Shown here: in pieces, positions 1-22,074 of the stretch
Numbering within the stretch: the first letter of the stretch is position 1
Layout of the letters: each line of letters opens with the position of its first letter
Source: an uncultured bacterium
GTDB taxonomy: Bacteria > Krumholzibacteriota > Krumholzibacteriia > JACNKJ01
Direction: 5' to 3'
Length of the DNA stretch: 64,000 nt
Assembly: GCA_963695095.1 (NCBI GenBank)
Contig: CAVOFT010000001.1
Location: forward strand, 1,376,001-1,440,000
Made by a program: the position numbers and the translations under genes
Notes under the pieces: generated by a model
Told to the model about the DNA's origin: nothing
The model's input: only the letters and a program-made list of their open reading frames with translations
Databases searched by the model: none

Positions 1-1
1 G

Positions 2-187
2 CGCCTGGCCGGCCTCAGTGGCAGCATCGACGGCTATTTCGAAAGCGTGATGGTCAACAGCGAGGACGCCGCCCTGCGGGGAAATCGGCTGGCCTTCCTG
101 CGCAATCTCGCCCAGCTCTTCCTACATCTCGCGAATTTCTCGCGCGTGGTCCTGGAGGGGGAGCGGGAGCCCCTCCCGGAGCGCTGA
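2..187 (+). CDS. glyS: Glycine--tRNA ligase beta subunit, C-terminal fragment (5' truncated by window)
   Basis: Frame 2 reads RLAGLSGSIDGYFESVMVNSEDAALRGNRLAFLRNLAQLFLHLANFSRVV..., matching the GlyS DALR C-terminal pattern (ID.FF..VMV..ED..LR.NRL.LL); stop TGA 185-187. Confidence 0.85.
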   Translation, partial: RLAGLSGSIDGYFESVMVNSEDAALRGNRLAFLRNLAQLFLHLANFSRVVLEGEREPLPER

Positions 188-269
188 GCCGGCCCATGCA
201 CTTCTCCTGGGGACTGTCAAGGGCCTTTCGGGAATCGCATGCCCCACCCGGCTGTCATGCGGTCGTTAC

Positions 270-299
270 TTGACTTCGCAAACCCCCAGCACGTAGACT
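270..299 (+). promoter_or_regulatory. Putative sigma70-type promoter for exoprotein A1
   Basis: TTGACT(270-275)-N18-TAGACT(294-299); same TTGACTTC/N18 layout as the promoter at 7710. Confidence 0.55.
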
Positions 300-569
300 A
301 TTAGCACTCGGATTGGGTCTTCGTGTCTGGACCCCTCAAGCAGGTTGGGACTCGCCAAGTCTTCCCGATGCCTGACGAGCGGGTGCAGGGACTCCCGGAA
401 CCGGTTGCGGCGATCCTGCGGTGCCGCGGCGATTCCGGGCGGGGGCCCCCGTCCCGGGTCCCAACGGTCTCGGGGGTGCGGAGTTCCAGCCTGAGTAGCC
501 CCACGGGCCGGTCCGGATCCGGCTCGACTGATTCGTCTCGAAACAACCATTGCCTTAATGGGGGGTAAT

Positions 570-3500
570 ATGAAGAGGATCCTCTCTCTGACCCTAAGCC
601 TCGCTCTCGTGGCCCTGGTGGCAAGTGCCGGGTTTGCGCGCGATGTCGTCAAGGACACGCGCACGAACTTCGAGTACCGCACGCCGCAGCCGGCCCCGGT
701 GACTACCGCGAGCGCTCGGGCAGACACGTTTTTCCTGTTCGCGGCCTCGGGTCCCGGCGCCAAGGGCATGCCGGGCACCAACAGCCGCGGCTACACCTTT
801 GACAACGGCTCCGGTGGCCCGGCCACCGCTGGCTGGACGACCTACGATGCCACGGCTCAGGCCGGGACTTACTGGCATCTGCAGGCGCTGACGCTGAGCA
901 ACGGCCACGGCACGGATTTCTCGACGGCGGCTGGCTTGCCGCCGACGGGCGGCCCGACCGCTGGTAACGACTTCGCGTGGTGGTGCGGTCGCCAGAACGC
1001 TTGCGGCTGGGCGAATCCCACCGGCTACGGCACCAGCTGGAACCAGTGGCTCGAGCTGGCGGTGCCGGCGGCGGCCACCGGCGGCACGATCGAGTTCGAT
1101 TACGTCGCGGACTTCGAGGGTGACACCTTCGACTTCTTCACCCTGTACACGAAGACCGGCGCCAACGATCCCGTGCAGCTGTTGACCAACACCATCAGCG
1201 GCGAGCAGACCGTGCTCCACTACGGTCCCACCGCTTTCGGCGATGTCGACAAGCTCATCTTCGCCTTCGTGTCCGATGGCGGCTGGTCCGATGAGGACGG
1301 CTCCTTCATCACGGACATCGGTGCGGTCTGGGTCGACAACTTCGTGGTCGACTACACCGGCGCCACGGATCTGGCCTGGAACTTCGAGGACGGCGTCGAG
1401 GCCAACTACCCCGCGCTGACCGCGAGCTTCCCCGCGGGCGCGGGCATCTACGGCGCGCTCTATGCCAATCTGTTCAGCGAGGACGTGTGCATCACGAACT
1501 CGACCTATGCCTGGGCTTTCTTCGATCTGAACACGACGAACCCCGAGTACCCGATCCCGGTGACCGCCTACGGTCCGCCCTACGTCGAGAACGGCATCCA
1601 GAGCCCGATCTTCGAGAAGGCGCACGCCCTCGGCGATGCCGTGGGTACCTCGGTTCTCGATCAGCACGATGCGAACTCGCAGTTCCTCGTCCGCTGGATG
1701 GTCTACCGCGACCTGCCTCTGAACGCGCTGATTTTCTACCAGCTGTTCGTCGCGGCGCAGACCGTCGAGGTGCCTTGCCTCGGCCAGTGGGCCAACAACA
1801 ACACCGTGTGGTACGGTGACGACAATGCCTGGGGCGACTGGTTCATCGACTACACGCTGCGTCTGGCGACGTCCGCGGCCGGCAATACCGTCAACGGTAT
1901 CGCCATCCGTCTGAACTCGCTCGACCAGTGCGGCGTCTGGTGCAACACCTACGGTGACGGCACCGGCCATACCCCCGCGCCTTACTTCGACATGGTCTCG
2001 GCGATGCTGGTCAACAGCTCGTCGATCGCCTGGAACACCGACGTGTTCCGCCGCCTCCAGGACAACTTCCCTGAGACCAGCGGCAAGGTGCGCATCGACA
2101 GCTGCGATCGACGTTCAGCCCACCACCAGCACCACGCTGGTGATCGGCGACTCGACCCGCGTCGACCTGAACATGGACGGCAACGGCGGCATCGGCCTGG
2201 ATCCCAACACCGGCACTCGCCGCGCAGTGTACATGCACTTCCGCGTCGTGGCCGGCCCGCATGCGGGTTCGACCGCCGCGGCGATGGGCGATCCGGACAT
2301 CAGCGACGGCATCTACTCGCCGCTCGTTGGCACGACCGTTGTGAACGGTGAGACCTGGAATGTCGCGGTGGCGGACACTGCCCGCTACCAGAGCACCCAG
2401 AGCCCCGGCTCCTGGGCCTTCGACCTCGCGGATGACTACTTCGAGGCCGGCGACGTCATCGAGTTCTACTGGAAGGGCATCGCGGCCGACGCTACCGTGT
2501 CGACCCGTCCGCTCTACGCCGAGAATGCCGATCCCGAGCTGCGTAGCTACTACACCGTGCGCTGCCTGCCGACGGCCGGCGCCACGATGCTGTACTGCGA
2601 CGACGGCTGGGGCGCTGGCGGCGTCGGTTTCATGCCGTACTGGGAGCTGGCCTTCCGCTACAACGGCTACGAGGACTACGATGTGTACGTGACCCAGGCG
2701 CCCAGCTCGGGTCTGCACAACGGCCTCGGCGGCCGCGCCGAAATCGGTGACATCGATCAGTACCAGGTGATCATCTTCGACAGCGCTGACCTGCCCACCT
2801 ACACGATCCAGAACGCGCTGCCCGATGACCTCACCTTCGACGACGTGCTGCTGGACGACTGGCTCGTCAACAGCTCCCACAACACCTGCCTCTGGGTGCT
2901 GGGGAACGAAATCGCGACGGACCAGGCGGACGAGCCGAGCTTCCTGAACAACGACCTTGGCGCCGTGCGCATCCTGTCCGGCACCTACTATGATGACCTC
3001 ACCGGCATCGTGGTGCCCAAGGTGTTCTCGTCGCATCCTGCGCTGCTGATCGGCGGCATCCAGCCCTACTTCAACGTGGATGCGGGCTGCCCGTCGATCG
3101 ACAACCTGGATCTGGTGGCGCTGAACACCGGCAACCCCCTGGCCGTCGAGGCCATGCGGTGGGCGGTCACGGGCGGCAGCCAGGCCAAGGCTGGTATCTA
3201 CAACCAGGATCCGGACGGCAATGGTACTGCCCTGAGCCCCGGTGGCTTCACCAACCGGACCCTGTTCAACCCGTTCAGCTACTATGAAGTCTGGGATGCC
3301 GGCTTCGGCACCGGTCAGGGCTACAGCTACGCTCGCCTCTTGGTTGGCGACGTGCTGTCGAACCTCTGCGGTTTCGATCCCAACGGCACCCCGGACGGCG
3401 TGGATGTCGTGCCGGCGAGCTTCGCGCTCAAGGGCAACTTCCCGAATCCCTTCAACCCCACGACCACGATCAAGTTCGATCTGGCTGCCAGCGAGTACGT

Positions 3501-3693
3501 GCACCTGAACGTGTACGATCTCAGCGGCCGCCTGGTGAAGACGCTGGTTGATCAGCCGATGTCGGCTGACAGCCATGAGGTGGTTTGGGACGGCAAGGAC
3601 AACGGCGGTGTCCGCGTGGCCAGCGGCGTGTACTTCTACAAGCTGGTCGCCGGCGATTTCAACGCCACCGAGAAGATGGTGATGTTGAAGTAG
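570..3693 (+). CDS. Large secreted exoprotein A1 (~1040 aa) with C-terminal FlgD-Ig/T9SS-like sorting domain; one +1 frameshift near 2103
   Basis: Signal peptide MKRILSLTLSLALVALVASAGFA; ORFs 558..2351 and 1954..3693 join at KVRIDS/AIDVQPTTSTTLVIGDS, collinear with intact paralogue 4349..7474; C-terminus NFPNPFNPTTTIKF...VYDLSGRLV...WDGKDNGG..VASGVYFYKL...KMVMLK. Confidence 0.85.
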
Positions 3694-3760
3694 TCCGCTC
3701 ACTCGTTTGCTCTCGCGCACGAAACAACGTGCGCGACCCGCAAACGAGCTCGCTTGCGAA
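3690..3760. repeat. Cruciform/REP-like element, copy 1
   Basis: GTAG start; 9-bp stem CTCGTTTGC/GCAAACGAG, 2x3 internal loop, 9-bp stem TCGCGCACG/CGTGCGCGA, loop AAACAA, then CTCGCTTGCGAA; homologous to reverse complement of 7471..7545. Confidence 0.75.
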
Positions 3761-3770
3761 AGCAGAGCAG

Positions 3771-3802
3771 AAGGGGGAGCCGCAAGGCTCCCCCTTTTTC
3801 TT
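3771..3802 (+). terminator. Rho-independent terminator of A1
   Basis: AAGGGGGAGCC-GCAA-GGCTCCCCCTTTTTCTT hairpin plus T-tract. Confidence 0.9.
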
Positions 3803-4348
3803 GCGCGCGAGGTGCTCCAGGCGCTCGGCCGGCACCCGCGGCCGCCGGCGCCCGTTGCCGCTGGTCGGGACGGGGATGACGGCGGACGGACAACTCAATG
3901 ACGAATACCGCTCCCAGCGCCGCCGCCGGTTTCCTCCTATAACACAAGCATTGACAACGGTATGCGATGGTGGCCCTCGGGCCCTCACAAGGGCCTTTTA
4001 TCTCTCGCCTCCTGATCCCTGTTCGCCCCCTCGGATGGCATCTGTAAAAGTTGTACCGCACGCATTGACAAGGACTTACGATCAGAGGCCGGAGCGCCTT
4101 GGGTACGGCTCCTGCAGGGGCCCGATTGGTTGTTTCGAGGCGAGCCTAGCCTCGAGGGGCCGCCGTCCCGGCCGGGCTGCGGGCCGCGGCGCGTGACCGC
4201 AGGGCAAGCGGGCGACAGGGCCAAGACACCGGGCAAGCGATCCCTGGTCCTGCTCTTTTCCCCCCGCGCGCTCCACGCCGCCGCGGGCGAGGCATGATCC
4301 GCCGAGTCGGCGATTCCTCATCACGACTCACAGGACTGGGGGAATACC

Positions 4349-7300
4349 ATGACTCGACGACTGATCACTGCCCTGCTGGGGCTGGCAGCGTTCATGCCGC
4401 CTCTGCAGGCCGCGGCCCGAGAGGCCGCGCGGCCCGATCGAGGCCACATCGCCCTGGAGGGCCCCGCGCGCGGGGCCCCGCCCGCAGCGAACCTCCGCGC
4501 TCGCGAGGACACGCTCTTCCTCTTCGCGGCCTCGGGGCCGGGCGCCTACGGGGCACCGGGTACCGACGACCGCGGCTATACCTTCGACAACGGCGCCGGC
4601 GGCCCGGCCATGGCCGGCTGGACCCCGGTGGATCTGACGGTGCAGGCCGGCGCGTGGTGGCACCTGGCCGACGCCGACATGGTGGACGGCCTGCCCACGG
4701 ACATGAGCGCCGCCGGCCAGCCCTGGACGGTGGGGGACACGAACAACGACTTCGCGCTCTGGTGCGGGCGACAGAACGTCTGCGGGTGGCTCAATCCCAC
4801 GGGCTACGGCAACGACTGGGAACAGATCGTCGCTCTGGCCCAGCCGGGCTTCGCCACCTCGCTGCAGGTGAATTTCGTCTACAACAGCGACTTCGAAGGC
4901 GACGTCTACGATTTCTTCACGGTCGAGATCGAGGTGAACGGAACCGCCCAGGAGGTGTTCCGGCACAACGTGGCCGCCGACCGCACCTTCCACGACTTCA
5001 GCGTGACCATCAACAAGGCCGACTACCCCACCGGGGCCAATTTCGGCGATGTGCTCTTCCACTTCAGCGCGGACGGCGGCTGGTCGGACGAGGATGGCTC
5101 CTTCATCTCGGACATCGGCGCGGTCTGGCTCGACAACCTGGAGCTGAGGGCGGACGCGGTGACGGTCTTCCGGGCCGACCTCGAGGATGGCGTGCTCCCT
5201 GCTGCCATCGACTTCACCGTGCCGCTGGGCGCGGGCAGTTTCGGGGCGCTCTACCAGGGGCTCTTCTCAGAGGACATCTGCATCGTCAACTCGAGCCATG
5301 CCTGGGCGTTTTTCGACCTCAACACCACGAATCCCGAGTACCCGATCCCGGTGACGGTCTACGGGCCGCCTTACATGGACAGCGCCGTGCGCAGCCCCCT
5401 GCTCGAGCGGGCTCACGCGGCGGGCAGCGCCGGCGGACAGCCGCTGGTGATCACGCCCGAAACGCAGGTGAATCTCGAGTACTGGGTCTACCTGGACATG
5501 CCGCTCAATGCGCTCGTCTTCGAGAAGTGGCGGGTGGCGGCGATCACCGAGGAGCAGCCCTGCCTCAGCGGCTTCAAGGATGACCAGACGAGCTACTACG
5601 GGGACCAGAAGATCTGGTTCGCCGCGGACCGCAACGTCACGCTCGCGGTCGCCGAGGCGGCGGCGGGTGGCACGGTGACGGGCCTCGTCGTCCAGATGGA
5701 GTCCATCGACCGCTGCCCGGACTGGTGCAACCAGTACGGCGACGGCACGGGCCACACGCCGGCGCCCTACTTCGACAACGTGCGCATCAAGCTGATCAAC
5801 GCCTCGGCCGTGGCCTGGAACGTGGATCAGTACCGGCGCTTCCAGGACAATTTCCCGGAGGTCGGGACCGGCAAGGTGCGCATCGACAACAGCGACGACA
5901 TCGCGCCGCCGAACAGCAACACGCTGGTGATCGGCGACTCGACGGTCGTCGACCTGAACATGGATCTGGCGGGAGGCATCAAGCCGAACGCGAGCAATCC
6001 CACCGGCCAGACCCGCCCGGAATTCTACCTCTGGTTCCGCGTCGTCTCCGGTCCCCATGCCGGCTCCACGGCGGCCGCCATGGGCGATCCGGACGCCGGC
6101 GACGGCATCTGGTCGCCGCACGTGGGCACGGCTGACTTCAACGGCCTCACCTTCAACGCCCTGCTCGCCGACTCGGCCCGCTACCAGGGCACGACGGTGG
6201 CGGGCACCTATGCCTTCGACTTCAACGATGCCTTCTTCGAGCCCGGGGACGTGATCGAGTTCTTCTACCGCGCCGAATCCGGCACGGGGGTCATCGAAAC
6301 CCGTCCCCGCTACGCCACGGCCAACGATCCTCAGCTCCGCGCCTACTACACGGTGCGCTGCCTGCCGACCGCTGGCGTGGCGATGCTCTACTGCGAGGAC
6401 AACTTCGGCGATCTGCCCTGGTGGGATGAGGCTTTCCGCTACAACGGCTATGCCGACTACGACATCTACACCACGCAGGCGCCGAGCTCGGGCCTCAACA
6501 ACGGGCTCAGCGGGCGGGCGGAACTGGGGGACATCGACCAGTACCAGGTGATCGTCTGGGACAGCAGCAACCTGCCTTCCTACACCCTGAGCAACGCCCT
6601 GCCTGAGGACAAGACCTTCGACACCGTGCTCCTCGACGATTGGCTGGCCAACAGCAGCCACGACACCTACCTGTGGGTGATGGGCTGTCAGGTCGCCAAT
6701 GACCTCGGCGCTTCCGATCCCTTCCTCGGCACCGATCTCGGTGCCTCGCTCCTGTTCGCCAATCAGTACCTGGACGACGTGACCGGCGTGCTCGTGCCCA
6801 AGGTCTACGCCACCCATCCCGCGCTCGAATGGCTGGGCGCCAGCCCGAGCTTCTGGGTGGACGGCGGCTGCCCCTCGGTGGAGAACTTCGCCATGGTGGC
6901 CCGCAACGGCCAGTTCGCGCTGGAGAGCCATGCCTGGGAGAATACCGGCGGCACGACGGCGGTGGCGGGCATCTACAACCGGGATCCGGACGGCAACGGC
7001 ACGGCGACGAGCGCAGCCGGGCACATCAATCGCACGCTCTTCAACCCCTTCGGCTATTTCCAGGTGCGGGACGCCGGCTACGGCGTCGCCCAGGGTGTGG
7101 ACTACGCCCGCAAGATGGTGGGCGACATCCTGTCCAACCTGCTCAGCCGCGATCCCGACACCGTGCCCGATGGCGCGGGCGAGATCCCGGCGGCGACGGC
7201 GCTCAAGGGCAGCACTCCGAATCCATTCAATCCCAAGACCACCCTCCATTTCGCGCTGGCCGTCGACGCGCCCGTCCACCTGGGCGTCTACGACCTGGCC

Positions 7301-7474
7301 GGGCGGCGGGTGCGGCAACTCCTGGCCGGCGAGCGCAGCCTCGCCGCCGGGCAGCATGAAGTCGTCTGGGACGGCCGCAGCGATGCGGGCGACCGCGTCG
7401 CCAGCGGCGTCTACTTCGTCCGCATGCAGGCGGACGCGGTGAGCCAGACGCTCAAGCTGGTGCTTCTCAAGTAG
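4349..7474 (+). CDS. Large secreted exoprotein A2 (1041 aa), paralogue of A1, C-terminal FlgD-Ig/T9SS-like domain
   Basis: Signal peptide; blocks shared with A1 (DGGWSDEDGSFI.DIGAVW.DN, WAFFDLNTTNPEYPIPVT.YGPPY, YGDGTGHTPAPYFD, YYTVRCLPTAG); C-term PNPFNPKT...VASGVYF...KLVLLK. Confidence 0.9.
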   Translation: MTRRLITALLGLAAFMPPLQAAAREAARPDRGHIALEGPARGAPPAANLRAREDTLFLFAASGPGAYGAPGTDDRGYTFDNGAGGPAMAGWTPVDLTVQAGAWWHLADADMVDGLPTDMSAAGQPWTVGDTNNDFALWCGRQNVCGWLNPTGYGNDWEQIVALAQPGFATSLQVNFVYNSDFEGDVYDFFTVEIEVNGTAQEVFRHNVAADRTFHDFSVTINKADYPTGANFGDVLFHFSADGGWSDEDGSFISDIGAVWLDNLELRADAVTVFRADLEDGVLPAAIDFTVPLGAGSFGALYQGLFSEDICIVNSSHAWAFFDLNTTNPEYPIPVTVYGPPYMDSAVRSPLLERAHAAGSAGGQPLVITPETQVNLEYWVYLDMPLNALVFEKWRVAAITEEQPCLSGFKDDQTSYYGDQKIWFAADRNVTLAVAEAAAGGTVTGLVVQMESIDRCPDWCNQYGDGTGHTPAPYFDNVRIKLINASAVAWNVDQYRRFQDNFPEVGTGKVRIDNSDDIAPPNSNTLVIGDSTVVDLNMDLAGGIKPNASNPTGQTRPEFYLWFRVVSGPHAGSTAAAMGDPDAGDGIWSPHVGTADFNGLTFNALLADSARYQGTTVAGTYAFDFNDAFFEPGDVIEFFYRAESGTGVIETRPRYATANDPQLRAYYTVRCLPTAGVAMLYCEDNFGDLPWWDEAFRYNGYADYDIYTTQAPSSGLNNGLSGRAELGDIDQYQVIVWDSSNLPSYTLSNALPEDKTFDTVLLDDWLANSSHDTYLWVMGCQVANDLGASDPFLGTDLGASLLFANQYLDDVTGVLVPKVYATHPALEWLGASPSFWVDGGCPSVENFAMVARNGQFALESHAWENTGGTTAVAGIYNRDPDGNGTATSAAGHINRTLFNPFGYFQVRDAGYGVAQGVDYARKMVGDILSNLLSRDPDTVPDGAGEIPAATALKGSTPNPFNPKTTLHFALAVDAPVHLGVYDLAGRRVRQLLAGERSLAAGQHEVVWDGRSDAGDRVASGVYFVRMQADAVSQTLKLVLLK

Positions 7475-7545
7475 TTCGCAAGCGAGTCTCCCCTCCTGGC
7501 CGCGCGCGTTGTTTCGCGCGCGGCGGGAGGGGAGCGAGCGTCTAC
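7471..7545. repeat. Cruciform/REP-like element, copy 2 (inverted relative to copy 1)
   Basis: GTAG-TTCGCAAGCGAG...CTCCCCTCC/GGAGGGGAG and CCGCGCGCG/CGCGCGCGG stems, loop TTGTTT, ends GAGCGAGCGT-CTAC. Confidence 0.75.
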
Positions 7546-7590
7546 AACGCGCGCGGCGCGGAGCCGAGCCCGCACCTTTCAACTCCAGCC

Positions 7591-7616
7591 GGGGGAGCCG
7601 CTTGGCTCCCCCTTTT
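7591..7616 (+). terminator. Rho-independent terminator of A2
   Basis: GGGGGAGCC-GCTT-GGCTCCCCC-TTTT; stem identical to the A1 terminator. Confidence 0.8.
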
Positions 7617-7709
7617 CCTGCTCCCGGGCCCCGGCGGCAGCCGCCGGGGCCCGGGGTGCGGCCGGCGCCCGGCCCCGGGACGGCTCCGGGGTGCCTCGGG
7701 GCTTTTGGG

Positions 7710-7739
7710 TTGACTTCAAATCCCACAATTCCCTATATT
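7710..7739 (+). promoter_or_regulatory. Putative sigma70 promoter of the lipoprotein operon
   Basis: TTGACT-N18-TATATT in an AT-rich patch ~75 nt upstream of ATG 7815. Confidence 0.65.
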
Positions 7740-7814
7740 ACAGCCGCTTTACCCCACTCATGCCTGCCCTCGTGCCCCGAGACTCCACACCCTGGGTGGA
7801 AGGAGCGGATTATC

Positions 7815-9941
7815 ATGCTGGGGATTGACCGCCGCCTGAGGACTTCCCTTCTGGCCGCCGCCGGGCTTGCCCTGGCCTTGGGTCTGGGTTGTCGCCGCGA
7901 GTTGCCCGAGCTCTTCGACCGCAACAAGGCGCCGGAGACCTACGTCACCGCGGCCCCGGTGGAATCCCTCTTCGATGGCTTCCGCGTACAGCTCAACTGG
8001 TACGGCCTCGATCCCGACGGCGAGATCGCCTACTACCTCTGGGCCTGGACCGACTCCTCGCGCGCCTACTTCTCGGCCTGGAATCCCGAGACCCGGGCCG
8101 ACGACCGCATCCTCCGCGAGGGGCTCTTCGAGGCCACGCACCTGACGACGCGCACCGATTCCATCTTCACCATCCAGGCCAACGACAACGGCGGCACGGC
8201 GCGGGACGTGACCTTCAACGTCACGGCCGTCGACGATCAGGGCAAGCGCGACCCGGTGCCGGCGCGGCTGTACTTCTTCGGCAGCGTCGACGCCCGCCCC
8301 CAGATCGTCTGGCTCGACACGCCGCCGGACACGCTCGACTCCGGGGAGGCATTCACCTGCCGCTTCACGGCGACGACCCAGAACGGCTACATCCTCGGCT
8401 ACAGGTGGGCCTCGGGGGCCGATCCCAACTTCGAGCCCCAGAGTAGGACCGGCGAGCAGATCTGGACCTACCAGATCGCCGATGACTGCAGCAACGTCGA
8501 TCTGGAAGACGGCTACTGCGGCCTGCAGGATTCGACGGCGATCAGCCTGAGCTTCGCGAACGACATCGGCGGCGCCGATTCTCTCATGGTCGAGTTCTAC
8601 AAGTTTGGCACCTTTCTCATCAAAGCGCGCGCGATCGACCTGGCCGGCGTCGAGTCCGAGTTGAACACCTCGCTGAGCAATCTGAAAGGTGCCGTGGCGC
8701 CGGTGCTCAACCGCGACCCGGATACGCGCCTGCGGCCCTGGGACGGCGCCGAGGACTACCCGATCGAGGTGACCTATCCGACGGGCCAGGGCCAGAGCGA
8801 GGTCTACCGCCTCAACGCCGTGCGCGTGGATACCCTGCCCGACGGCCGCCCAGCGCCGCCCGGATTCCACTACGCCGTGCGCGAGACCGTGCCCTGGGGC
8901 GCTACCGCCTGGATCCGCTTCTTCTGGCAGGGCTGGGATTACGACGACCCCATCATCGCCGCCGATATCGAGGACATCGTGGGGGACGAGGATACGATCC
9001 AGACCCGCTTCCAGATGAGCTACTCCTGGACGAAGCAGAACCTCACGAATGGCGCCGCCTTCAGCGCCAACTCCAACGGGCGCTATCCGGCCGGCGGCGA
9101 GCTCGGCTACCCGGAGGAACTCGAGTTCGATGCTTTCGGCGAGGCGGGCAGCACTTTCCGGATGAACATCCTGCCCGTGACCTATACGGTCTACGGCTAC
9201 GCCCAGGACCACTTCGAGCGCGTCGACGGCACGCCGGTCTCGGTCACCTTCACGGGCGGCTTCGCCTCCACGGTGGACAGCATCGTCCTCAGCGCCACCA
9301 AGGGCGACGGCAGCCCCTCGGGCGTGCGCGTGAACCTGAGCACCCTGCCGCCGGGCGCTCCGGTGCGCGTCGCGCTGCATGCCTATCCAGCGTTCTGGCC
9401 GCCCACATCCGAAGTCGGCGCCTGGAATCCGACAACGCGCACCTTCACATTGAATCCGAGCGTCGTCACCGGGGTCGGGCCGAGCGCATTGGACGAGTTC
9501 AATCCGACCTTCACGTTCTATGGGCACGACGACCCGCGCAACGGCGAAGCCGTGCAGCTCGGGCGCGCGCGCTGGGATCTGGTGGATCCCGACTTTCCGA
9601 TCAGCAGCCTGCAATTCGTGACGGATGTCTACGAGGCGGCCGACCAGACCACCGTGAACTTCTGGAAGGAGGTCTTCCCGGGCAACGCCGATCCGCCGGC
9701 CTCCGGGAGCTTCACCGTGCAGCTCAAGATCCGGGACATCTTCTCCGCGATCAACGCGGGCCCGACGCCGACCTATCTGGGTCCGAAGACCTTCCAGGGC
9801 GAATTCTGCAATACCATCGCCTCGCAGGTCGTGACGGAGATGATCGAGGACACGCCGCAACGCCAGATCGGTCTCAATAACACCGGGCGCGTCAGCCTGC
9901 CCCTGCGCGCCCAAGTCGATATTCAGTACGCGCCGTTCTAG
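7815..9941 (+). CDS. Lipoprotein L1 with Ig/Y_Y_Y-like beta-sandwich repeats, unknown function
   Basis: GGAAGGAG RBS, ATG 7815; lipobox LGLG-C; N-terminal module NKAPETY...VQLNWYGLDPDGEIAYYLW...FNVTAVDDQG resembles L2/L3 modules. Confidence 0.8.
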   Translation: MLGIDRRLRTSLLAAAGLALALGLGCRRELPELFDRNKAPETYVTAAPVESLFDGFRVQLNWYGLDPDGEIAYYLWAWTDSSRAYFSAWNPETRADDRILREGLFEATHLTTRTDSIFTIQANDNGGTARDVTFNVTAVDDQGKRDPVPARLYFFGSVDARPQIVWLDTPPDTLDSGEAFTCRFTATTQNGYILGYRWASGADPNFEPQSRTGEQIWTYQIADDCSNVDLEDGYCGLQDSTAISLSFANDIGGADSLMVEFYKFGTFLIKARAIDLAGVESELNTSLSNLKGAVAPVLNRDPDTRLRPWDGAEDYPIEVTYPTGQGQSEVYRLNAVRVDTLPDGRPAPPGFHYAVRETVPWGATAWIRFFWQGWDYDDPIIAADIEDIVGDEDTIQTRFQMSYSWTKQNLTNGAAFSANSNGRYPAGGELGYPEELEFDAFGEAGSTFRMNILPVTYTVYGYAQDHFERVDGTPVSVTFTGGFASTVDSIVLSATKGDGSPSGVRVNLSTLPPGAPVRVALHAYPAFWPPTSEVGAWNPTTRTFTLNPSVVTGVGPSALDEFNPTFTFYGHDDPRNGEAVQLGRARWDLVDPDFPISSLQFVTDVYEAADQTTVNFWKEVFPGNADPPASGSFTVQLKIRDIFSAINAGPTPTYLGPKTFQGEFCNTIASQVVTEMIEDTPQRQIGLNNTGRVSLPLRAQVDIQYAPF

Positions 9942-9999
9942 CCCCAGAACGGCGGGGTCGGCCCCCCCCGCGGGGGGGCCGCAACGCGGGAAGCGAGCC

Positions 10000-12477
10000 A
10001 TGCGCAGATACAGATTCCTGCTCTTCCTCTTGGCGGTCACGGTCGCGCTCGGCGGGGTGATGGGCTGCGACAACCTGGAGACCGAGGGCAAGCCCAATCA
10101 GGCGCCCGCGGTGTATCTCTCCAGCGGGCCCGCCAACAACGACGCCAACGTCAACTACCGGGTGCGCTTCTACTGGAACGGCTACGATCCCGATGGCCGC
10201 GTGGACCACTTCGAGTACCTGGTCACCAACGACGAGGTCACGGGTTCGCTGATCATCGACGACGATATCTACACCACCCTCGCCGCTCTCGACGACGCCT
10301 ATCCGCAGGTGGACTACAGCTGGCGCAGCATCGAAGTGCATGACACGACCATCTCGGTGACGGCCGACTCCATCCCGGTGGCGGGCGCGCCGGAAGACTC
10401 GCTCTATTTCTACGGGGGCGATCGCTTCCTCTTCCGCGCCCACCACACCTTCTTCATTCGGGCGGTGGACGAGCTTGGAGCCGTATCCCGCATCCCGGCC
10501 CATCGCACCTTCACGGCGACGACGATCGCCCCCGAGGTGAAGATCAACCACCCTGCGGACACGCAGGGCGTCGGCGGCTACGATCAGCTGCCTCCGGACA
10601 TCTTCTTCCGCTGGGCCGGCAACGACTCGGTGGGGGACGGCACGGTGATCGAGCCCGACTACACGCGCTACGCCCTGCTCAAGCGGGGCGATCTCGGCCT
10701 GGACACGCAGTTCACGGGCCGGCTGCTCAGCTTCCCCGACTCGGTCTGGAGCGTCTGGCGGGGCTGGGATCAGGTGGATTCGCTCAACGAGAATCTGAGC
10801 GGCAAGCGGGCCCTGATCACTGGCCTCACGCCGACCTCGGCGGGGGGCGGCGCCGGGTTCTACCTGTTCTTCGTGCAGGCCAAGGACGAGGCCGGCGCGA
10901 TCTCCAGCCACTACGAGGACGGCAAGAACCTGCGCAAGATCCGCGTGGTCTCCAGCCTGGCGCCGAAGGTGACCGTCACCGAGCCCGTGCTCGGCGTGCG
11001 CGTGAGCAGCAACAATCAGACCTACGACTTCACGGTGGCGGAGAACCAGGTGCTCAGGCTGACCTGGTCGGCTACGGCCGCGGCCTATGGCAGCGAGATC
11101 ACCGGCTACCGCTATGGCTGGGATATCCTCGATACGGAGAACGACGAGGAGTGGAGCACCTGGTCGCTGGCGACCACCTCCACGCAGGCCAGCTTCGTCT
11201 CGGGCAGCCACAGCTTCTTCCTGGAGGCCCGCGACTACAGCGGCACGACGACCCGTGTCGTCTATCGCCTGGTCGTGGTGCCCTTCACGATGGAGCGCGA
11301 GCTGCTCTTCATCGACGACTACAACAACACGGCCAGCTCGAGCGTCGCCAACACCTACCCCGGCAGCCCCAATCAGTACAACTGGGGCACCTACTACCTG
11401 ACCAACGATATGCAGCGGGATTTCTGGGACGCCATCCTGGAGGAGTACAACGGCTACGATCCGGTCGTGGACTTCTTCCGGGTGACGGCGATCAATCCCA
11501 TCCCGCCCTTCGAGACCGTGGCGCTCTACAAGCGTCTCATCTGGGAGGTGAAGGAGGGCGGCGCCGGCGAGGCGGGCCTGAGCCGCGTGTCCCGCTTCGT
11601 GGACGTCTACGCCGTGAATTCGGTGCCCTTCGATTACCTGTCGGCCTTCATGGACCGCGGCGGGCAGCTCCTGCTCTGCGGCAGCAACCCGGTGCTCGCC
11701 ATGCTGCCCACGGCCGGCGAGATGGCCGACCCCACCTACGAGCGCCGGCTGCCCATGGCCTTTCTCAAGCACCTCTCCTACTCGGAAGGCAGTTCCAGCG
11801 AGTCGCAAGCCGCCGTGGGACGCTTCCTGCCCTACAAGTACTTCGGCCTGGACGCGCTGGTCAAGGGCGCCGACCAGGACGCCAAGACCTACGACTGGAC
11901 CGGCCCCGACTGGCGCACCGTGCGCACCTTCTGGGGCTTCTACGGCGCCGGCTACACGCGCGCCGAACTGGCCAGCTTTCCCAACACGACGAGCTGGGCG
12001 CCGGGCGACACCCTGCGCTTTCGCCCGCAGGTCTACCAGTGGTTCCACGACGCCGGCGGCTTCTTCAACGGGGCGGATTCGCGCGCGGTGGGTTGCACGG
12101 CCTTCCCTCGCGCCTTCGGCCTCAACTCCGTGGAAATCTACAACTGGGATTTCTTCAGGCTCCAGTACGATCCGCCGCTCACCTACCGGACGACCAAGTA
12201 CATCCCGCTGCTTTCCTACGTGCCGGCCGATCCCACGACGAGATGGGGCCGGACCCCGAGCCCGGACATGTGCTACCTGACTCCGGGCGGCGAGCATCAC
12301 GACGAGCTGGGCTACGCCACGGGCAGCGGCGGCCCGCATGCGGTCGCGGTGATCGGCATGGAGAAGCCGGCCACCCCCAGCGTGCTCCTGGGATTCACGC
12401 CCTACTACCTGGCGCCGACCGAGGCCAAGGGCTTCATCGACCACATCTTGATCGACATCTTTCACATGATCAAGTGA
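10000..12477 (+). CDS. Lipoprotein L2 (825 aa): three beta-sandwich modules plus C-terminal alpha/beta (class I GATase-like) domain
   Basis: Lipobox VMG-C; repeats ending HTFFIRAVD, YLFFVQAKD, HSFFLEARD; then LLFIDDY...KRLIWE...LSAFMDRGGQLLLCG...VLLGFTPYYL. Confidence 0.85.
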   Translation: MRRYRFLLFLLAVTVALGGVMGCDNLETEGKPNQAPAVYLSSGPANNDANVNYRVRFYWNGYDPDGRVDHFEYLVTNDEVTGSLIIDDDIYTTLAALDDAYPQVDYSWRSIEVHDTTISVTADSIPVAGAPEDSLYFYGGDRFLFRAHHTFFIRAVDELGAVSRIPAHRTFTATTIAPEVKINHPADTQGVGGYDQLPPDIFFRWAGNDSVGDGTVIEPDYTRYALLKRGDLGLDTQFTGRLLSFPDSVWSVWRGWDQVDSLNENLSGKRALITGLTPTSAGGGAGFYLFFVQAKDEAGAISSHYEDGKNLRKIRVVSSLAPKVTVTEPVLGVRVSSNNQTYDFTVAENQVLRLTWSATAAAYGSEITGYRYGWDILDTENDEEWSTWSLATTSTQASFVSGSHSFFLEARDYSGTTTRVVYRLVVVPFTMERELLFIDDYNNTASSSVANTYPGSPNQYNWGTYYLTNDMQRDFWDAILEEYNGYDPVVDFFRVTAINPIPPFETVALYKRLIWEVKEGGAGEAGLSRVSRFVDVYAVNSVPFDYLSAFMDRGGQLLLCGSNPVLAMLPTAGEMADPTYERRLPMAFLKHLSYSEGSSSESQAAVGRFLPYKYFGLDALVKGADQDAKTYDWTGPDWRTVRTFWGFYGAGYTRAELASFPNTTSWAPGDTLRFRPQVYQWFHDAGGFFNGADSRAVGCTAFPRAFGLNSVEIYNWDFFRLQYDPPLTYRTTKYIPLLSYVPADPTTRWGRTPSPDMCYLTPGGEHHDELGYATGSGGPHAVAVIGMEKPATPSVLLGFTPYYLAPTEAKGFIDHILIDIFHMIK

Positions 12478-12599
12478 GGACCAGCTTGGACGGAGGGACG
12501 CCGCAGCACTCGGGAGTGGGACCTGAACGCCGCGGCCCCTCCGTCGCTCCATCGACGCTCGCCGGCCCGGCGGCCGGGGTGAGGGAGGATTGAGGCGCA

Positions 12600-14240
12600 A
12601 TGAGAAACGAGGCGAGGCTCAGTGCAGCGCTGGTCCTGGCGCTGCTCCTGCCGGCCGGGGCGGCTGCCCAGCTCTGCGATCCTGATGACATGCCGCCGCC
12701 GGCGGTCTATGCCGATACGCTGGGATTGCCCGCGCCGGATTGGGACATGAGCCCTTTCTACCCCGCGGGCGGCACGCGCCTGGACGCGATCGGCAACGCC
12801 TATTACTCCGTGGGCACCGAGTTCGGCTACTTCGGCGTGCCGGCCGAGTTCGACGTGACCGAGGAGGAGCCCCCGCACTACTTCCTGCCCGACGGCTGGC
12901 GCAAGCGCGACATGATGACCTTTACCTGGACGCGGCCGGCCGGCACCCAGATCGTGCGCCGGCCTTCGCTGCGCTCGGGCGGCGTCTGGGCCATGGATCC
13001 CGCGGGCAGCGTGCCGGGCGACACCGTGCTCGTCTCGCCGCAACTCTCGGTCTACGGCGCCTACACGGGCAGCCGGGATCAGGTCTTCGTCTTCGAGCGC
13101 AGCTTCGGCGCGCGCTTCCAGGGCGATCGCGTGGCCAGCCCTCTCGATCCCGGCCTCGATGCCTGGAGCGCGAGCCACTACACCATCGACGGCGAGCTGT
13201 GGTACGACACGCCCCAGTACTTCACGCCGATCGGCGGCAGCATCACGATCACCAGCACGATGAGCTGGAAGGAATCCTACACGCCGGATCCGGAGTTCGC
13301 CTATGCCCCGGGCGATCCCCTGCTCAGCGGCCGCATCAACCTCTACTCGCGCTACGAGCGGGTGGCGGCCGATTCCGTGCGACTCGTCGACACCAACATC
13401 CACTGCGCCCACGGGCTCTTTCCCGATGCCTGGTACCCGAACGGCACCTGGGATCCGACCACGGATCCCTCCGCCTACGGACTCTACGTTTCCTTTTCGC
13501 CGGGCGTCATGGCTGAGGGTTTCCGCTGGCGCCTGGTCACCGAGGAGTTCGACGGCTATCTCGTCTGGCGGGAAGTCCTCGGCTCGGACAACGGCTGGAT
13601 GAACATCTGGAAGATCTCCTACAATGAAGAGCGCGACAAGGAGTACTGGTGGTGGATCGGCGGCGACTTCAGCATCACCGCGCCGCCGCCCTACTACGGC
13701 TACGATCCGATGACGCTGACCAACGTTTTCGCCGGCAGCGACGAGCTGCTCTATCTCGACTTCGACGTGCACAACGGCTTCGCCTACAAGTACGCGATCA
13801 CCACCTTCGACCGCGGTTTCCGACCCAACAGCGGCGAGAACAATCACTACCTCCGCAGCAGCACCAGCAAGGAGCAGCTCGACACGGTGGCGCGGGAGCT
13901 GGTCTTCAACCGGCCGGCGGGGGAGCGGCTGGAGCGCAACGTCTATGCCGTGCCCAATCCGCTGCGCACGGGCAAGAGCGCCTTCGACGATCCGAACTAC
14001 CACAATTTCCCGGGCGAGATCGTGCGCTTCGTGGGCGTCACGGCGCAGACGACCCTTAAGGTCTACTCGCTGGCCGGCGATCTCCTCTTCGAGGCCGCGA
14101 ACACGGATCCGAACACGCGCAACATCGTCTGGGACACCCGCAACCAGATGGGCGAGTTGGTCGCCTCGGGCGTCTACATCTACCGCGCGGAGGGCCAGGG
14201 TGGGGACGAGGAGTTCGGCCGCCTGATCATCATCCGCTAG
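12600..14240 (+). CDS. Secreted protein C with FN3-like motif and T9SS-like C-terminal domain
   Basis: Signal peptide ending AAA-Q; DFDVHNGFAYKYAITTFD; VYAVPNP...KVYSLAGDL...WDTRNQMGELVASGVYIY...GRLIIIR. Confidence 0.85.
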   Translation: MRNEARLSAALVLALLLPAGAAAQLCDPDDMPPPAVYADTLGLPAPDWDMSPFYPAGGTRLDAIGNAYYSVGTEFGYFGVPAEFDVTEEEPPHYFLPDGWRKRDMMTFTWTRPAGTQIVRRPSLRSGGVWAMDPAGSVPGDTVLVSPQLSVYGAYTGSRDQVFVFERSFGARFQGDRVASPLDPGLDAWSASHYTIDGELWYDTPQYFTPIGGSITITSTMSWKESYTPDPEFAYAPGDPLLSGRINLYSRYERVAADSVRLVDTNIHCAHGLFPDAWYPNGTWDPTTDPSAYGLYVSFSPGVMAEGFRWRLVTEEFDGYLVWREVLGSDNGWMNIWKISYNEERDKEYWWWIGGDFSITAPPPYYGYDPMTLTNVFAGSDELLYLDFDVHNGFAYKYAITTFDRGFRPNSGENNHYLRSSTSKEQLDTVARELVFNRPAGERLERNVYAVPNPLRTGKSAFDDPNYHNFPGEIVRFVGVTAQTTLKVYSLAGDLLFEAANTDPNTRNIVWDTRNQMGELVASGVYIYRAEGQGGDEEFGRLIIIR

Positions 14241-14317
14241 GTGATGACCGGCGCCCGGCGCCTCTCCCCTGACCGGCCACCCGGGCCGGTCAGGCCGGCG
14301 GTCGCAGAGGAGGATTG

Positions 14318-16781
14318 GTGAGCGGCAGCCGCTGGTGGCGCGGCGCCCTGCCGCTGCTGCTGGCGGGGGCGCTGGGCCTGGGCGCTTGCGATGAGCGCCT
14401 CGATGAAGTCGGCCTACCCAACCAGGCCCCGGTGATCCACCTCTCGAGCGGACCCGTCGAGGGCGAACCCGACGCCAATTACCGCGTGCACTTCTACTGG
14501 AACGGCCACGACCCCGACGGTCATGTGGACCGCTATCAATTCCTGATCACCGACGACGAAGTCACCGGTTCGCTGATCATCGACGAGGACGTCTACGCGC
14601 GTCTGGCCGGGCTCGGCTACGGCTGGCGGGACGTCTGGGCTCACGACAGCATCTTCGCCGTCACCGCGGATTCGATTCCCGACGCGGACGATCCCGCGGA
14701 TGCGCAGTATCTCTACGGCGATCGCTTCCTCTTCCGCGCTCAGCACACCTTCTTCGTGCGGGCCGTCGACGAAGAGGGGCTGGCCTCCCGCCTGCCGGAG
14801 CATCGCAGCTTCACGGCGACGACCATCGCGCCCGAGGTGAAGATCGTCTTCCCAGGCGACCTCGGCGGCGTCGGCGGTTACGACGGCCTGCCGCCGGACA
14901 TCTTCTTCCGCTGGACGGGCAACGACTCGGTGGGCGACGGCAGCGTGATCGTGCCCGATTCCACGCGCTTCACGCTGCTGCGCCGGGGTGACCTGGGGAT
15001 CGTCAATCAGGAGAGCGGGCGCCTGCTCGCCTTCCCGGACAGCGTGTGGAGCCCCTGGCGGCACTGGGACGCCGTCGACAGCCTGAACCCCAACCTGGGC
15101 GGCCGCCAGGCCCTCGTCGAGGATCTGACGCCGACCTCGCAGGGAGGCGGCGAGGGCTACTACCTCTTCCTCGTCCAGGCCAAGGATGAGGCCGGCGCCA
15201 TCACCAGCCACTTACCAGGACGGCAAGAACCTGCGCAAGCTGCGCATCCTCGAGGGTCTGCAGCCGCGGCTGGTGATCCGCGAGCGCTCGCTGGGCACCA
15301 GCTTCGCCGGCCACGATCAGACCTGGGACTACAGCATCGCCGCCGATCAGCCCCTGCAGATGAGCTGGTCCGCCTCGGCGGCGGAATACGGCAGCGAGAT
15401 CACGGGTTACCGCTATGGGTGGGACATCCTCGACAGCAACAACGACGAGGAATGGACGAGCTGGTCGCTCAGCAACACCGCTGCGCAGGCGAGCTGGCCC
15501 GGCGGCACGCACAGCTTCACGCTCGAGGCGCGCGACTACAGCGGCCGCGTGACGCGGGTCCTCTATCGCTTCGTGGTGATCCCCTTCACGATGGACTTCG
15601 ACCTGCTGCTGGTCGACGACTACGACAACACGCCCGTGGCCAATCCCTACCAGGGTTGGCCCCTCGGCCAGCCCTTCACCTGGGGCACCTTCCCGCACAC
15701 CAACGAGCAGCAGCTCGCCTGGTGGCAGGCGCTCCTGAGCGACTACCCCGGCTTTGCAGCGGGCCGCGATTTCTTCCGCGTCACCGTCATCGACAAGCAG
15801 CCCTATATCCAGGTGCTGGCCAGCTACAAGCGCGTGATCTGGGAGGTGCGCGAGACCGAGCCGGGCGGCTCCGGGCTCGCGCGGGTGGCGGCGATGGTGG
15901 ATCCCTACTCCGTCCAGGGCGCCGTGCCCTACGATTACCTGAGCGCCTTCCTCGAAGGCGGCGGGCAGCTCCTGCTCTGCGGCGTGCACCCCATCTCAGC
16001 GCTGCTGCCGTTGCCCGCCCAGATGCAGACCGATTCCTACCAGCGCCGAACGCCGATCGCCTTCCTCAAGCACATGGGCCTGAGCGGGGGCAGCGCCAAC
16101 GAGTCCGCGGCCGCCGTGCAGCGCTTCCTGCCCTGGCGGGAGTTCGGCATCGATGCCGTCGCCAAGGCCGTCGATCCCAATCCGCGCCTCTTTCCGGGCG
16201 CCAACGCCGATCTGCGCACGCCGCGCACCTTCTGGGGGCTCACCGGCATCGGCTATGCCGGCGGCGAGCAGGCCGACTTCCCCATCAGCACCGGCTGGCT
16301 GCCCGCCGACACCCTGCGCTTCCGGCCGGAGGTCTACGCCTGGTTCGCCGCCGCGGGCCCCATCTTCAACGATCCCGACGACTGGGACGACCCGAGCGGC
16401 GCCGGGCACGTGGAGTTCGGCCTCGCCGAGGGCGAGATCTACAACTGGGACCGCTTCGCGGCCGCCTACACGCCGCCGCTCCACCTGCGCTCGGAGCAGT
16501 ACCGGCCCTTGCTCACCTGCATTCCCGCCGACTCCACGACGCGCTGGGGCCCGGCGCCCACGCCCGTCCATCCCTACATGCGCGCCGACGGCCAGCACTA
16601 CGACGAGCTGCAGTACAGCCTCGGCCCGGGCCGCCGGCACCTGACCGGGCTCGTCGGCATGCGCCACCCGGAAGCGCCCAGCGTGCTCCTGGGCTTCACG
16701 CCCTACTACCTCGCGGACGATGCCGCGCGCGGGCTCTTCGACCACATCCTGGTGGACATCTTCCACATGGAGCGGCCTTGA
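14318..16781 (+). CDS. Lipoprotein L3, paralogue of L2; one +1 frameshift near 15211
   Basis: GAGGAGG RBS; lipobox LGA-C; 5' part of ORF 14315.. joins ORF 15186..16781 at AGAITSH/YQDGKNLRK, collinear with L2 AGAISSHYEDGKNLRK; both end DHIL.DIFHM. Confidence 0.85.
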
Positions 16782-17854
16782 GCGGGTCTGCCCGCGGCGA
16801 GTGGCAGGCACTGGCCCTGCTCACGCGCAGCGGCGAGCCGGAATCGCAGCACTGGGGAGCCTGGGCGCTGGTCGACGCCGCCGGGCGCCTGCTCGACGGG
16901 CGCGGGGATCCGGGTCAGGCGGTCTGGGCGCGCAGCGCGGTCAAGGCCTTCCAGGCTCTACCCGTCGCGGCCCTCGGCCTGCTGGAGCGCCATGGCCTCG
17001 GCGACGAGCACCTGGCCATCATCGCCGGCTCGCATAGCGGAGAGCCGCGCCACCGCCGGCTGGTGGGCGAGATCCTCGCGGCCGGCGGCTTCGGAGAGGC
17101 CGACCTCGCCTGCGGCTACCACCGGCCCTTCGACCGTGCCAGCGCGCGGGAGCAGATCGCGAGCGGGGCGCCGGACAGCCCGCTCTATCACAACTGCTCG
17201 GGCAAGCACGCGGGCATGCTGCTCCTGGCCGGCGCCCTGGGCGCGCCCAGCGCCGACTACCTCGACCCCGAGGGCCCCGGCCAGCGCCTGATCCGCGAGA
17301 CGCTCAGCGCCTTCGCGGGCGGCCGGGCGCCCCTCCTCGGCCTCGACGGCTGCAGCGCCCCCAGCTTTCGCCTGCCCCTGGCGGCCCTTGCCCAGGCCGC
17401 CGCCCGGCTGGGCGCCGGCGATCCGCCGGCGGGCCTGCCTCGCCCGGCGCTGCCCTGGGGGGTGGCGCTCGAGCGACTGCGGGGAGCCCTGACCGCTCAT
17501 CCCGAACTCGTGGGGGGCAGCCACCGTCGCTTCGATACGGATCTGATGCGCGCCGCCGGCGGCGGCCTGCTGGCCAAGAGCGGCGCGGAGGGCGTGGAGC
17601 TGGTCTCGCTGCGGGCGCGCGGCTGGGGGCTGGCGCTCAAGATCGCTGACGGCGCCGACCGGGCCGTGCCGCCCCTGGTCTGCGCGCTGCTGGAGCGCTG
17701 GGCGATTCTGGACGCAAAAGCCCTTGCCGCGCTGGCGATCTGGCGTGATGCTGCGCAGATTAACGCGGTGGGAAGGCAAACCGGCGCGCTGGCGATTCTG
17801 CCCGCAGCGCTGCCGCCGCAGTCGCCGCCGGACGGCGCCGCTGCCGACGACTAG
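16778..17854 (+). CDS. L-asparaginase II family protein (Rhizobium AnsA type)
   Basis: Motifs RSAVKAFQALP, GSHSGE, HNCSGKHAGML, DGCSAP, KSGAEGV, ALKIADG; TTG start overlaps L3 stop (TTGA). Confidence 0.85.
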   Translation: MSGSARGEWQALALLTRSGEPESQHWGAWALVDAAGRLLDGRGDPGQAVWARSAVKAFQALPVAALGLLERHGLGDEHLAIIAGSHSGEPRHRRLVGEILAAGGFGEADLACGYHRPFDRASAREQIASGAPDSPLYHNCSGKHAGMLLLAGALGAPSADYLDPEGPGQRLIRETLSAFAGGRAPLLGLDGCSAPSFRLPLAALAQAAARLGAGDPPAGLPRPALPWGVALERLRGALTAHPELVGGSHRRFDTDLMRAAGGGLLAKSGAEGVELVSLRARGWGLALKIADGADRAVPPLVCALLERWAILDAKALAALAIWRDAAQINAVGRQTGALAILPAALPPQSPPDGAAADD

Positions 17855-17888
17855 GCGCCGCGACAGCCAGCGGGAGGATGCGGGAGTC

Positions 17889-19310: not shown

Positions 19311-22074
<2,764 letters not shown>

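Follow-up and report, generated by a model that had tools for sequence, protein, structure and literature searches.

The described systems that come closest to the locus presented here are type IX secretion system (T9SS) cargo proteins with a type-A C-terminal domain (CTD) for sorting, and PorZ, a protein of the T9SS attachment complex. The architecture of PorZ comprises two propellers and a tail. A surface layer that depends on this secretion route is found in Tannerella forsythia, which according to PMC4175972 has a T9SS-dependent S-layer of the proteins TfsA and TfsB. Here, we describe a gene cassette in a 64-kb stretch of DNA (the window, G+C content about 67%) from the genome of an uncultured bacterium of the phylum Krumholzibacteriota, which was assembled to 3.64 Mb in 2 contigs and is 93.5% complete. 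The locus is a real, conserved and so far uncharacterised envelope cassette, which is best described as a four-gene core of the families A, L1, L and C. Judged from its sequence and gene order, the window carries the ancestral, vertically inherited copy of this cassette between glyS and ppdK, in which A has been duplicated and a second L has been added. The genes of this copy are:

A1, positions 570..3693, + strand: exported protein of about 1040 residues with signal peptide and FlgD_ig/T9SS type-A tail, a paralogue of A2, with a frame break
A2, positions 4349..7474, + strand: exported protein of 1041 residues, sorting tail at residues 948-1041
L1, positions 7815..9941, + strand: lipoprotein of 708 residues, Cys26, a divergent paralogue of L
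L2, positions 10000..12477, + strand: lipoprotein of 825 residues, Cys23
C, positions 12600..14240, + strand: exported protein of 546 residues with a divergent PorZ-like/CHU_C-like tail
L3, positions 14315..16781, + strand: protein with lipoprotein signal, a paralogue of L2 (52-66% identity), with a frame break

The six genes are long co-oriented open reading frames (ORFs) on the + strand between 558 and 16781, with a third-position G+C bias that is typical of real genes. An earlier note, which was made from the sequence alone, had described them in just this order, A1-A2-L1-L2-C-L3, and much of its description is borne out. The paralogy of A1 and A2 is evident from BLASTP (58% identity over 532 residues and 49% over 525 residues), as is that of the lipoproteins L2 and L3 (52% over 524 residues and 66% over 283 residues), so that the view of a duplication into alternative variants is correct for both pairs. 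Also the FlgD-Ig/T9SS-like tails that had been assigned to A1 and A2 are confirmed, since the matches to TIGR04183 (34.7 bits for A1 and 23.3 bits for A2, with a curated cut-off of 23 bits) are at or above the cut-off and are accompanied by matches to FlgD_ig (39.4 and 36.4 bits, respectively).

The occurrence of the four families was determined in 201 genomes of the phylum, including the window's own, of which 125 are of high quality. L was matched in 193 of the 201 genomes and in all 125 high-quality genomes, L1 in 187 (123/125 of high quality), the body of A after removal of the tail in 172 (107/125), and the body of C in 99 (72/125). Full-length matches to C are confined to the window's own family, in which it is present as a single copy in 12/12 genomes, and elsewhere the match comprises residues ~290-415 only. 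Gene order was analyzed in a test set of 20 previously uninspected loci, which rank highest among the L1 matches from families other than the window's and were anchored on L1 alone, with the denominators giving the informative loci in which the contig continues. L follows L1 in 18/18 loci, C follows L in 17/17, and A precedes L1 in 11/14, the other three having a second L1, glyS directly, or neither of these before L1; glyS is found upstream in 10/12 loci and ppdK downstream in 16/17. The homologues are thus not scattered without synteny. In a separate set of 20 loci, which were picked for co-located matches and therefore represent a biased choice, L1-L-C is present in 20/20 and A is upstream in 17/20, with the three loci that have no A starting at a contig end. 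Additional pairs of A and L that lack L1 and C are present in 4/4 loci that were fetched from another family (f5), and the genome G078 contains an L1-L-C-L-L-L array, from which it follows that the linkage recurs outside the ancestral slot. The earlier note had proposed a six-gene system, and this needs to be modified: the linked genes are indeed conserved, but the core consists of the four genes A-L1-L-C, and the window copy is an expanded one. Two loci show variations at the ancestral slot: at L030 (genome G073) a second L1 stands in the place of A, and at L042 (genome G063) A is missing and glyS lies directly before L1. Both genomes contain A copies elsewhere.

Scans with Pfam and NCBIfam did not assign the body of any of the six proteins to a family. 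A word-indexed sequence search yielded relatives for A2 (106), L2 (262) and C (28), whose names read only “T9SS type A sorting domain-containing protein”, “FlgD immunoglobulin-like domain containing protein” or “hypothetical”, and which come from metagenome-assembled genomes labelled Krumholzibacteriota, Latescibacteria or just “bacterium”. Among the best 240 matches of the L and A families, no Pfam domain was found outside the sorting tail, save a few weak or partial matches in A. At E 1e-30, the L-family profile matched 516 out of 1.84 billion cluster representatives, and at E 1e-10 it matched 1434.

The structure model of A2, with a predicted local distance difference test score (pLDDT) of 87.8 and a predicted template modelling score (pTM) of 0.73, suggests the following domains in front of the sorting tail:

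A2 residues ~54-486: predicted outer jelly-roll domain, with matches at Z ~10 that resemble carbohydrate-binding modules (CBMs)
A2 residues 113-291: predicted nested MAM-like domain, similar to InhA2 (4yu5, Z 13.6, 16% identity)
A2 residues 487-673: predicted immunoglobulin (Ig)-like domain, similar to that of the deiminase from P. gingivalis (5ak7, Z 10.2)
A2 residues 675-940: predicted compact GATase1-like (GIFT/ThuA-like) domain, from structural matches

The CBM-like matches of the jelly-roll are an alginate-binding (8zqf, Z 10.6), a xylan-binding (2w5f, Z 10.5) and a hyaluronan-binding module (4d0q, Z 10.2). The conserved residues in the N-terminal half of the A family are mostly Asp, Glu and Gly together with paired Cys, a pattern that fits calcium-stabilised binding modules. 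For the GATase1-like domain, the best structural match is 2gk3 (Z 15.3, root-mean-square deviation 3.5, 209 aligned residues), followed by 3rht (Z 15.2) and the N-terminal domain of IFT52 (5fms, Z 14.3). On account of the MAM-like domain, A was also considered as an inactivated M6 peptidase, which was rejected because this domain alone matches; a match to PF05547 was not found.

The L family likewise combines Ig-like modules with a GATase1-like domain. The model of L2 (pLDDT 90.7, pTM 0.76) agrees with the Ig-repeat lipoprotein that had been noted from the sequence, and can be divided as follows:

L2 residues ~30-430: four PKD/FN3-like beta-sandwich domains, according to the structure model
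L2 residues 430-825: predicted GATase1-like alpha/beta domain with insertions, from structural matches

Foldseek found only generic tandem Ig/FN3 proteins for L2, and the L-family profile matched a PKD-like domain of ColH (E 0.0022) among the PDB sequences; otherwise only tails, those of FlgD, PorU and PorZ, were matched in these profile searches of PDB sequences. The region 430-825 is structurally similar to Agd3 (6nwz, Z 12.2), GH42 (5xb7, Z 12.2) and 3rht (Z 11.6), and further to ThuA-like 1t0b (Z 10.9), OST48 (6s7o_G, Z 10.9) and IFT52 (5fms, Z 10.2), with each of these matches aligning to about 200-215 of the 395 residues of the domain, which carries ~180 residues of insertions in L. The lipobox cysteine is conserved in both lipoprotein families, with Cys23 kept in 67/68 rows of L and Cys26 in 20/20 rows of L1.

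By BLASTP, L1 matches L2 and L3 over 56-71 N-terminal residues only, and it had accordingly been noted that L1 shares their N-terminal module. This is right as far as it goes but too narrow, since a comparison of the L1 and L profiles with hhalign aligns ~500 residues (probability 99.6%, E 1.5e-23), and L1 and L therefore share more than the N-terminal module. L1 is, on the basis of this alignment, a divergent L paralogue over the four Ig-like domains that does not possess the GATase1-like domain; its last ~200 residues differ from L. A search of the ESM Atlas with residues 490-708 of L1 and with C returned only unnamed clusters or scores of at most 0.80. The A and L families seem to be related as well. 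In a profile-profile alignment, A 606-791, which comprises Ig and the N-terminal half of the GATase1-like domain, aligns with L 356-572 (E 1.7e-4, probability 50%), and the two families have conserved Asp, Trp, Asp, Tyr, Trp and Gly residues in common in this alignment. The evidence for homology of the Ig and GATase1-like modules of A and L is weak but consistent. Acidic residues behind the lipidated cysteine mark surface-exported lipoproteins in Bacteroidota. In the L family, at least one Asp or Glu is found within the five residues after this cysteine in 58/67 sequences, and these five positions are net acidic (on average 1.24 acidic versus 0.24 basic residues); in the L1 family, Arg directly follows the cysteine in 20/20 sequences. 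One may speculate from these sequences that L and L1 are possibly sorted differently.

C differs from the A proteins in its sorting tail. The earlier note had regarded this tail as a second CTD variant, and indeed it is divergent (~445-546), scores below the type-A cut-off with 18.2 bits for TIGR04183 (16.3 bits for CHU_C), and is nearest to the tail of PorZ, which is its best match (E 1.3e-8). The PorZ tail surpasses the generic type-A tail in 7/7 members of the C family that were tested (E 1.3e-8 to 2e-11), and a PDB profile search with C also found PorZ (5m11, E 3.7e-6). The complete PorZ model (NF052228), however, gives 33.7 bits with C and covers model positions 668-748 only, compared to a cut-off of 260 bits, and 6 relatives of C likewise match this model by the tail only. 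C was thus rejected as a PorZ orthologue, as the tail alone matches. With A, too, C has the tail in common, as BLASTP aligns the last ~85 residues and a profile comparison is likewise restricted to the tail. The N-terminal half of C is family-specific, and the conserved region at ~290-415 reads as FN3-like from its sequence pattern. C-like proteins of another family (f4) have 805-833 residues and possess a BNR/Sortilin-type propeller, which the C of the window does not have. A related-locus search with C returned one relevant locus.

An enzymatic function is not indicated for any of the proteins. The residue at the GATase nucleophile elbow is Cys in only 49/68 rows of L, whereas A has Met or Leu there, the GATase1-like domains of A and L both lack a His with a conservation of at least 90%, and HExxH is absent from 170 family sequences, including 62 of the A family. 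The bodies of A1, A2, L1, L2 and L3 were not matched by the Pfam models GIFT/ABC_transp_aux, ThuA, GATase1_like and GH42M at E 0.1. With regard to class I glutamine amidotransferases, A2 and L2 therefore have the GATase1 fold in their models, but not the Cys nucleophile with His/Glu. The statement that no catalytic motif is recognizable in the six proteins thus holds also with family models, and none of them falls into a known enzyme family with an intact active site. As far as sequence and predicted fold tell, all four kinds of product are exported, rich in beta-sandwiches and non-enzymatic.

The genome contains components of the secretion route that is implied by the sorting tails. SprA is present with 423.7 bits (cut-off 200), a full PorU is found at 2.16 Mb with 438.4 bits (cut-off 420), and the best PorV-like gene adjoins PorU, with 112 bits, which is below its cut-off. 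The models of GldL, GldM and GldN (TIGRFAM) matched nothing in the genome, and the controls of this search likewise matched nowhere. A full-length PorZ was not found in the genome, in which 5 places match at E 1e-5, all at the level of the tail, with C as the second best. A2 has as many as 153 matches across the genome, almost all of them via the FlgD_ig-type sorting tail alone, and the predicted T9SS secretome appears to be very large for a genome of 3.6 Mb. Codon adaptation gave no expression signal, as the median for 33 genes around the two tuf copies is 0.696 versus 0.729 for the genome. A search of sequencing runs listed four DNA runs with small shares and no RNA run. An ORF of 852 residues with a PorZ-like tail adjoins a PorV-like gene (G000:C1:2396461-2396805 and 2395747-2396382), and the two could be a pair of attachment-complex components.

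We consider it about an even bet (probability roughly 0.5) that the cassette encodes a core, non-catalytic cell-surface assembly of T9SS-exported proteins and outer-membrane lipoproteins, possibly glycan-binding. In such an assembly, A would leave the cell through the T9SS and would be displayed on the surface as a putative abundant coat or adhesin subunit. L and L1 would reside in the outer membrane, where they would serve to anchor or organise A, perhaps via the shared GATase1-like modules, and C would stay attached through its PorZ-like tail. The GATase1-like and the jelly-roll/MAM-like domains may bind glycan, which could be the cell's own surface polysaccharide or external polymers. The dedicated surface assembly proposed in the earlier note is in part supported by export, non-enzyme folds and conserved linkage, while the lattice or capture complex that it envisaged is still inferred. 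A complex prediction for A2 488-945 with L2 318-825 gave a score of 0.00, which counts neither for nor against binding.

Several observations weigh against a surface assembly. The family f2 has L in 7/7 and L1 in 5/7 genomes but A in 0/7, so that A is not obligatory. The additional A copies of the window's genome (at 2.594-2.600, 0.208-0.210 and 3.503 Mb) lie apart from its extra pair of L genes (3.399-3.403 Mb). The block also holds glyS and ppdK, which are genes without a link to the cell surface, and the conserved order may therefore partly reflect general synteny, which makes it weaker evidence of a functional unit. The homology between A and L is weak, with the hhalign probability of 50% given above, and multi-copy, diverging families could also mean substrate-specific binding proteins instead of a structural coat. 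Three observations, on the other hand, add weight beyond the order itself, namely the linkage elsewhere in genomes, the homologous modules and the tight spacing of L1-L-C-L3.

The multiple, diverging copies of A and L within genomes are also what would be expected if A, L and C were surface glycan- or polymer-binding proteins that retain particulate or polymeric substrate on the cell surface for the many T9SS-secreted hydrolases, a nutrient-capture role that can be likened to that of the surface glycan-binding proteins of Bacteroidota. The CBM-like jelly-roll matches of A2 (8zqf, 2w5f and 4d0q, Z 10.2-10.6) are in line with such a role, and the top matches of the GATase1-like domain include glycan-processing proteins (GH42, Agd3, NDST1 and PelA). 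Sugar binding is presented as a proposed function of GIFT domains (GldG, IFT52, OST48/Wbp1) in PMC7226087, which cites a work of Beatson and Ponting from 2004. However, none of the 40 loci inspected has a linked transporter, TonB-dependent receptor, SusD-like gene or hydrolase, the primary copy sits in one fixed housekeeping slot throughout the phylum, unlike niche-specific substrate loci, and L is found in 125/125 high-quality genomes, which together make nutrient capture unlikely. The near-universal presence of L and L1 would also suit accessory components of secretion or attachment, in which case L1, L and C would be phylum-specific parts that receive T9SS cargo at the outer membrane and take over tasks that in Bacteroidota fall to PorZ and other components. 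The tail of C, which is nearer to PorZ than to the generic type-A tail in 7/7 members and matches 5m11 (E 3.7e-6), the BNR/Sortilin-type propeller of the f4 proteins, which resembles the PorZ architecture, and the genome's missing full-length PorZ, with C as the second-best tail-level match, all point in this direction. The GldL, GldM and GldN models that matched nothing could be cited as well, with the controls of this search likewise matching nowhere. As C aligns to PorZ by its tail alone (33.7 bits versus a cut-off of 260), as the tail-level match at 2396461-2396805 beside the PorV-like gene is a candidate at least as good, and as machinery genes are rarely multi-copy whereas L is, we regard accessory machinery as clearly unlikely. 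A bolder version, equally hard to favor, would have L1-L-C, with A as the usual client, as a phylum-specific outer-membrane type IX module and A as the main coat subunit. The GIFT-like lipoproteins and the PorZ-like-tailed C would then receive the cargo and fix it to surface glycan. In place of the PorZ-type delivery step of Bacteroidota, the module would act in constructing a coat that depends on the T9SS.

That most loci have glyS and ppdK on the two sides of the block, that each A gene has its own terminator-like hairpin behind it, and that the extra A and L copies are unlinked in the window's genome could also mean that the four envelope families are independent and adjacent by descent only, as the glyS-ppdK stretch is syntenic across the phylum. 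We think that this is very unlikely, because pairs of A and L as well as L-C-L arrays are found again elsewhere in genomes, A, L and L1 have homologous modules in common, and L1, L, C and L3 are co-oriented and tightly spaced. Finally, the GATase1-like or jelly-roll domains might conceal a novel active site, such as one that modifies glycans or peptides, for which acidic residues that are conserved where strands of the GATase1-like domain end (D684, D705 and D758 in A, and D439, D440 and D491 in L) and the nearly invariant Cys841 of A could be considered. As there is no conserved His in this domain, the classical nucleophile is not conserved, no enzyme family matches and the nearest structural neighbours, which are the oligomerisation domain of GH42, IFT52 and OST48, are not catalytic, cryptic enzymes are the most improbable explanation for the cassette.

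The intergenic regions give some indications on transcription. The elements recognized are:

Positions 3773..3794, + strand: terminator-like hairpin, 22 nt and G+C-rich, with a T run behind it, 80 nt downstream of the A1 stop
Positions 7591..7612, + strand: terminator-like hairpin, 22 nt and G+C-rich, with a T run behind it, 117 nt downstream of the A2 stop
Positions 7710..7739, + strand: sigma-70-like promoter match, 10/12 consensus positions, 75 nt before L1, a consensus match only

The hairpins after A1 and A2 have the same sequence and differ in the loop alone (2 matches in the window, 0 expected), and they are likely intrinsic terminators. As the same hairpin lies behind both A paralogues, the duplication took in the terminator. 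The gaps are 58 nt between L1 and L2, 122 nt between L2 and C, and 74 nt between C and L3, and the likely transcription units are A1, A2 and L1-L2-C-L3, with the last group being spaced like an operon. An Rfam scan of positions 1-18000 gave no match at E 0.1.

Both A1 and L3 are interrupted. One inserted base splits A1 between two frames near 2100-2110, and its removal restores colinearity with A2; likewise, one inserted base splits L3 near 15211, with its removal restoring colinearity with L2. In comparison to an intact orthologue of 918 residues at the relative locus L011, the ppdK of the window (19320-22020) is broken up, with at least 7 frame switches and at least 8 pieces that are spread over all three frames. 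The breaks in A1 and L3 are therefore most likely assembly indels. As the assembly seems to contain many such errors, frame breaks anywhere in the window need to be read accordingly. The possibility that A1 and L3 are pseudogenes was set aside for the same reason. A listed ORF of 1179 residues (14315-17854) is an artefact that begins as L3, runs on in a wrong frame after the break and ends in the frame of asparaginase II.

Upstream, the cassette is flanked by the 3' end of glyS, as identified by matches to the orthologous ORFs of relatives that carry DALR and tRNA_synt_2f domains, and downstream by genes for asparaginase II (16880-17854) and a beta-eliminating lyase and by ppdK. The scan of flanking genes did not reveal a TonB-dependent receptor, SusD or PorV, in agreement with what had been noted before. 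Further downstream (23076-27976), the window encodes an ORF of 797 residues without a Pfam match and then a protein of 550 residues with a lamin-tail domain and a FlgD_ig tail. At the relative locus L011, an ORF with a lamin-tail domain (17905-19000) comes after the second L gene. An ORF at 63325-63999, which runs off the window end, matches the Ig-like C-terminal domain of Peptidase_C25 (E 2e-8) and represents a gingipain/PorU-like protein that is distinct from the full PorU at 2.16 Mb.

To our knowledge, the Krumholzibacteria have no cultured members. Almost nothing is known about their cell envelope, and the cassette is one of few clade-wide and clade-specific gene blocks in which every product is exported. 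It joins two T9SS-tailed proteins with two lipoproteins and makes use of a module that is known from gliding, intraflagellar-transport and glycosylation proteins. If the products indeed assemble, they would form a type IX-dependent surface structure outside Bacteroidota and represent a new extracellular use of the GATase1/GIFT fold. As the 516 clusters of the L family found at E 1e-30 are without annotation, new family definitions would help to annotate many metagenomes. We found no literature on these proteins or on a connection of Krumholzibacteriota with type IX secretion, in a search that covered sources other than subscription journals and supplements. The sorting tails and the secretion route are of already known kinds, and the novelty, as judged by sequence, is in the bodies of A, L, L1 and C, which are in no Pfam or NCBIfam family.

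The comparison with the known systems can be made on this basis. A1 and A2 are like T9SS type-A CTD cargo in their signal peptide and in their tail at or above the TIGR04183 (PF18962) cut-off, in a genome with SprA and PorU, but their bodies are in no described family, the host is outside Bacteroidota, and the tail of C is below the type-A cut-off. C resembles PorZ (PG1604/PG93) of the T9SS attachment complex in its tail, and its f4 versions also in their beta-propeller, but the last ~90 residues of C alone align and the C of the window has no propeller. With M6 peptidases (immune inhibitor A), A2 has the MAM-like domain 113-291 in common, predicted from the similarity to InhA2, but A possesses neither a catalytic domain nor HExxH. 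The GATase1-like domains of A2 (Z 13.2-15.3) and L2 (Z 10.2-12.2) are predicted to have the same fold as GIFT and ThuA-like domains and related ones (5fms, 6s7o_G, 2gk3, 3rht and the middle domain of GH42), and they are also alike in having no catalytic triad; unlike these, the domain in A and L comes after an Ig domain, is located outside the cytoplasm and is linked with either a T9SS tail or a lipid anchor. The nearest functional precedent is TfsA/TfsB of T. forsythia, with an apparently unrelated domain make-up. Compared by role only, A1 and A2 would resemble these (PMC4175972) as a pair of large, adjacent and paralogous T9SS-dependent surface proteins, but the cassette adds lipoproteins and a protein with a PorZ-like tail.

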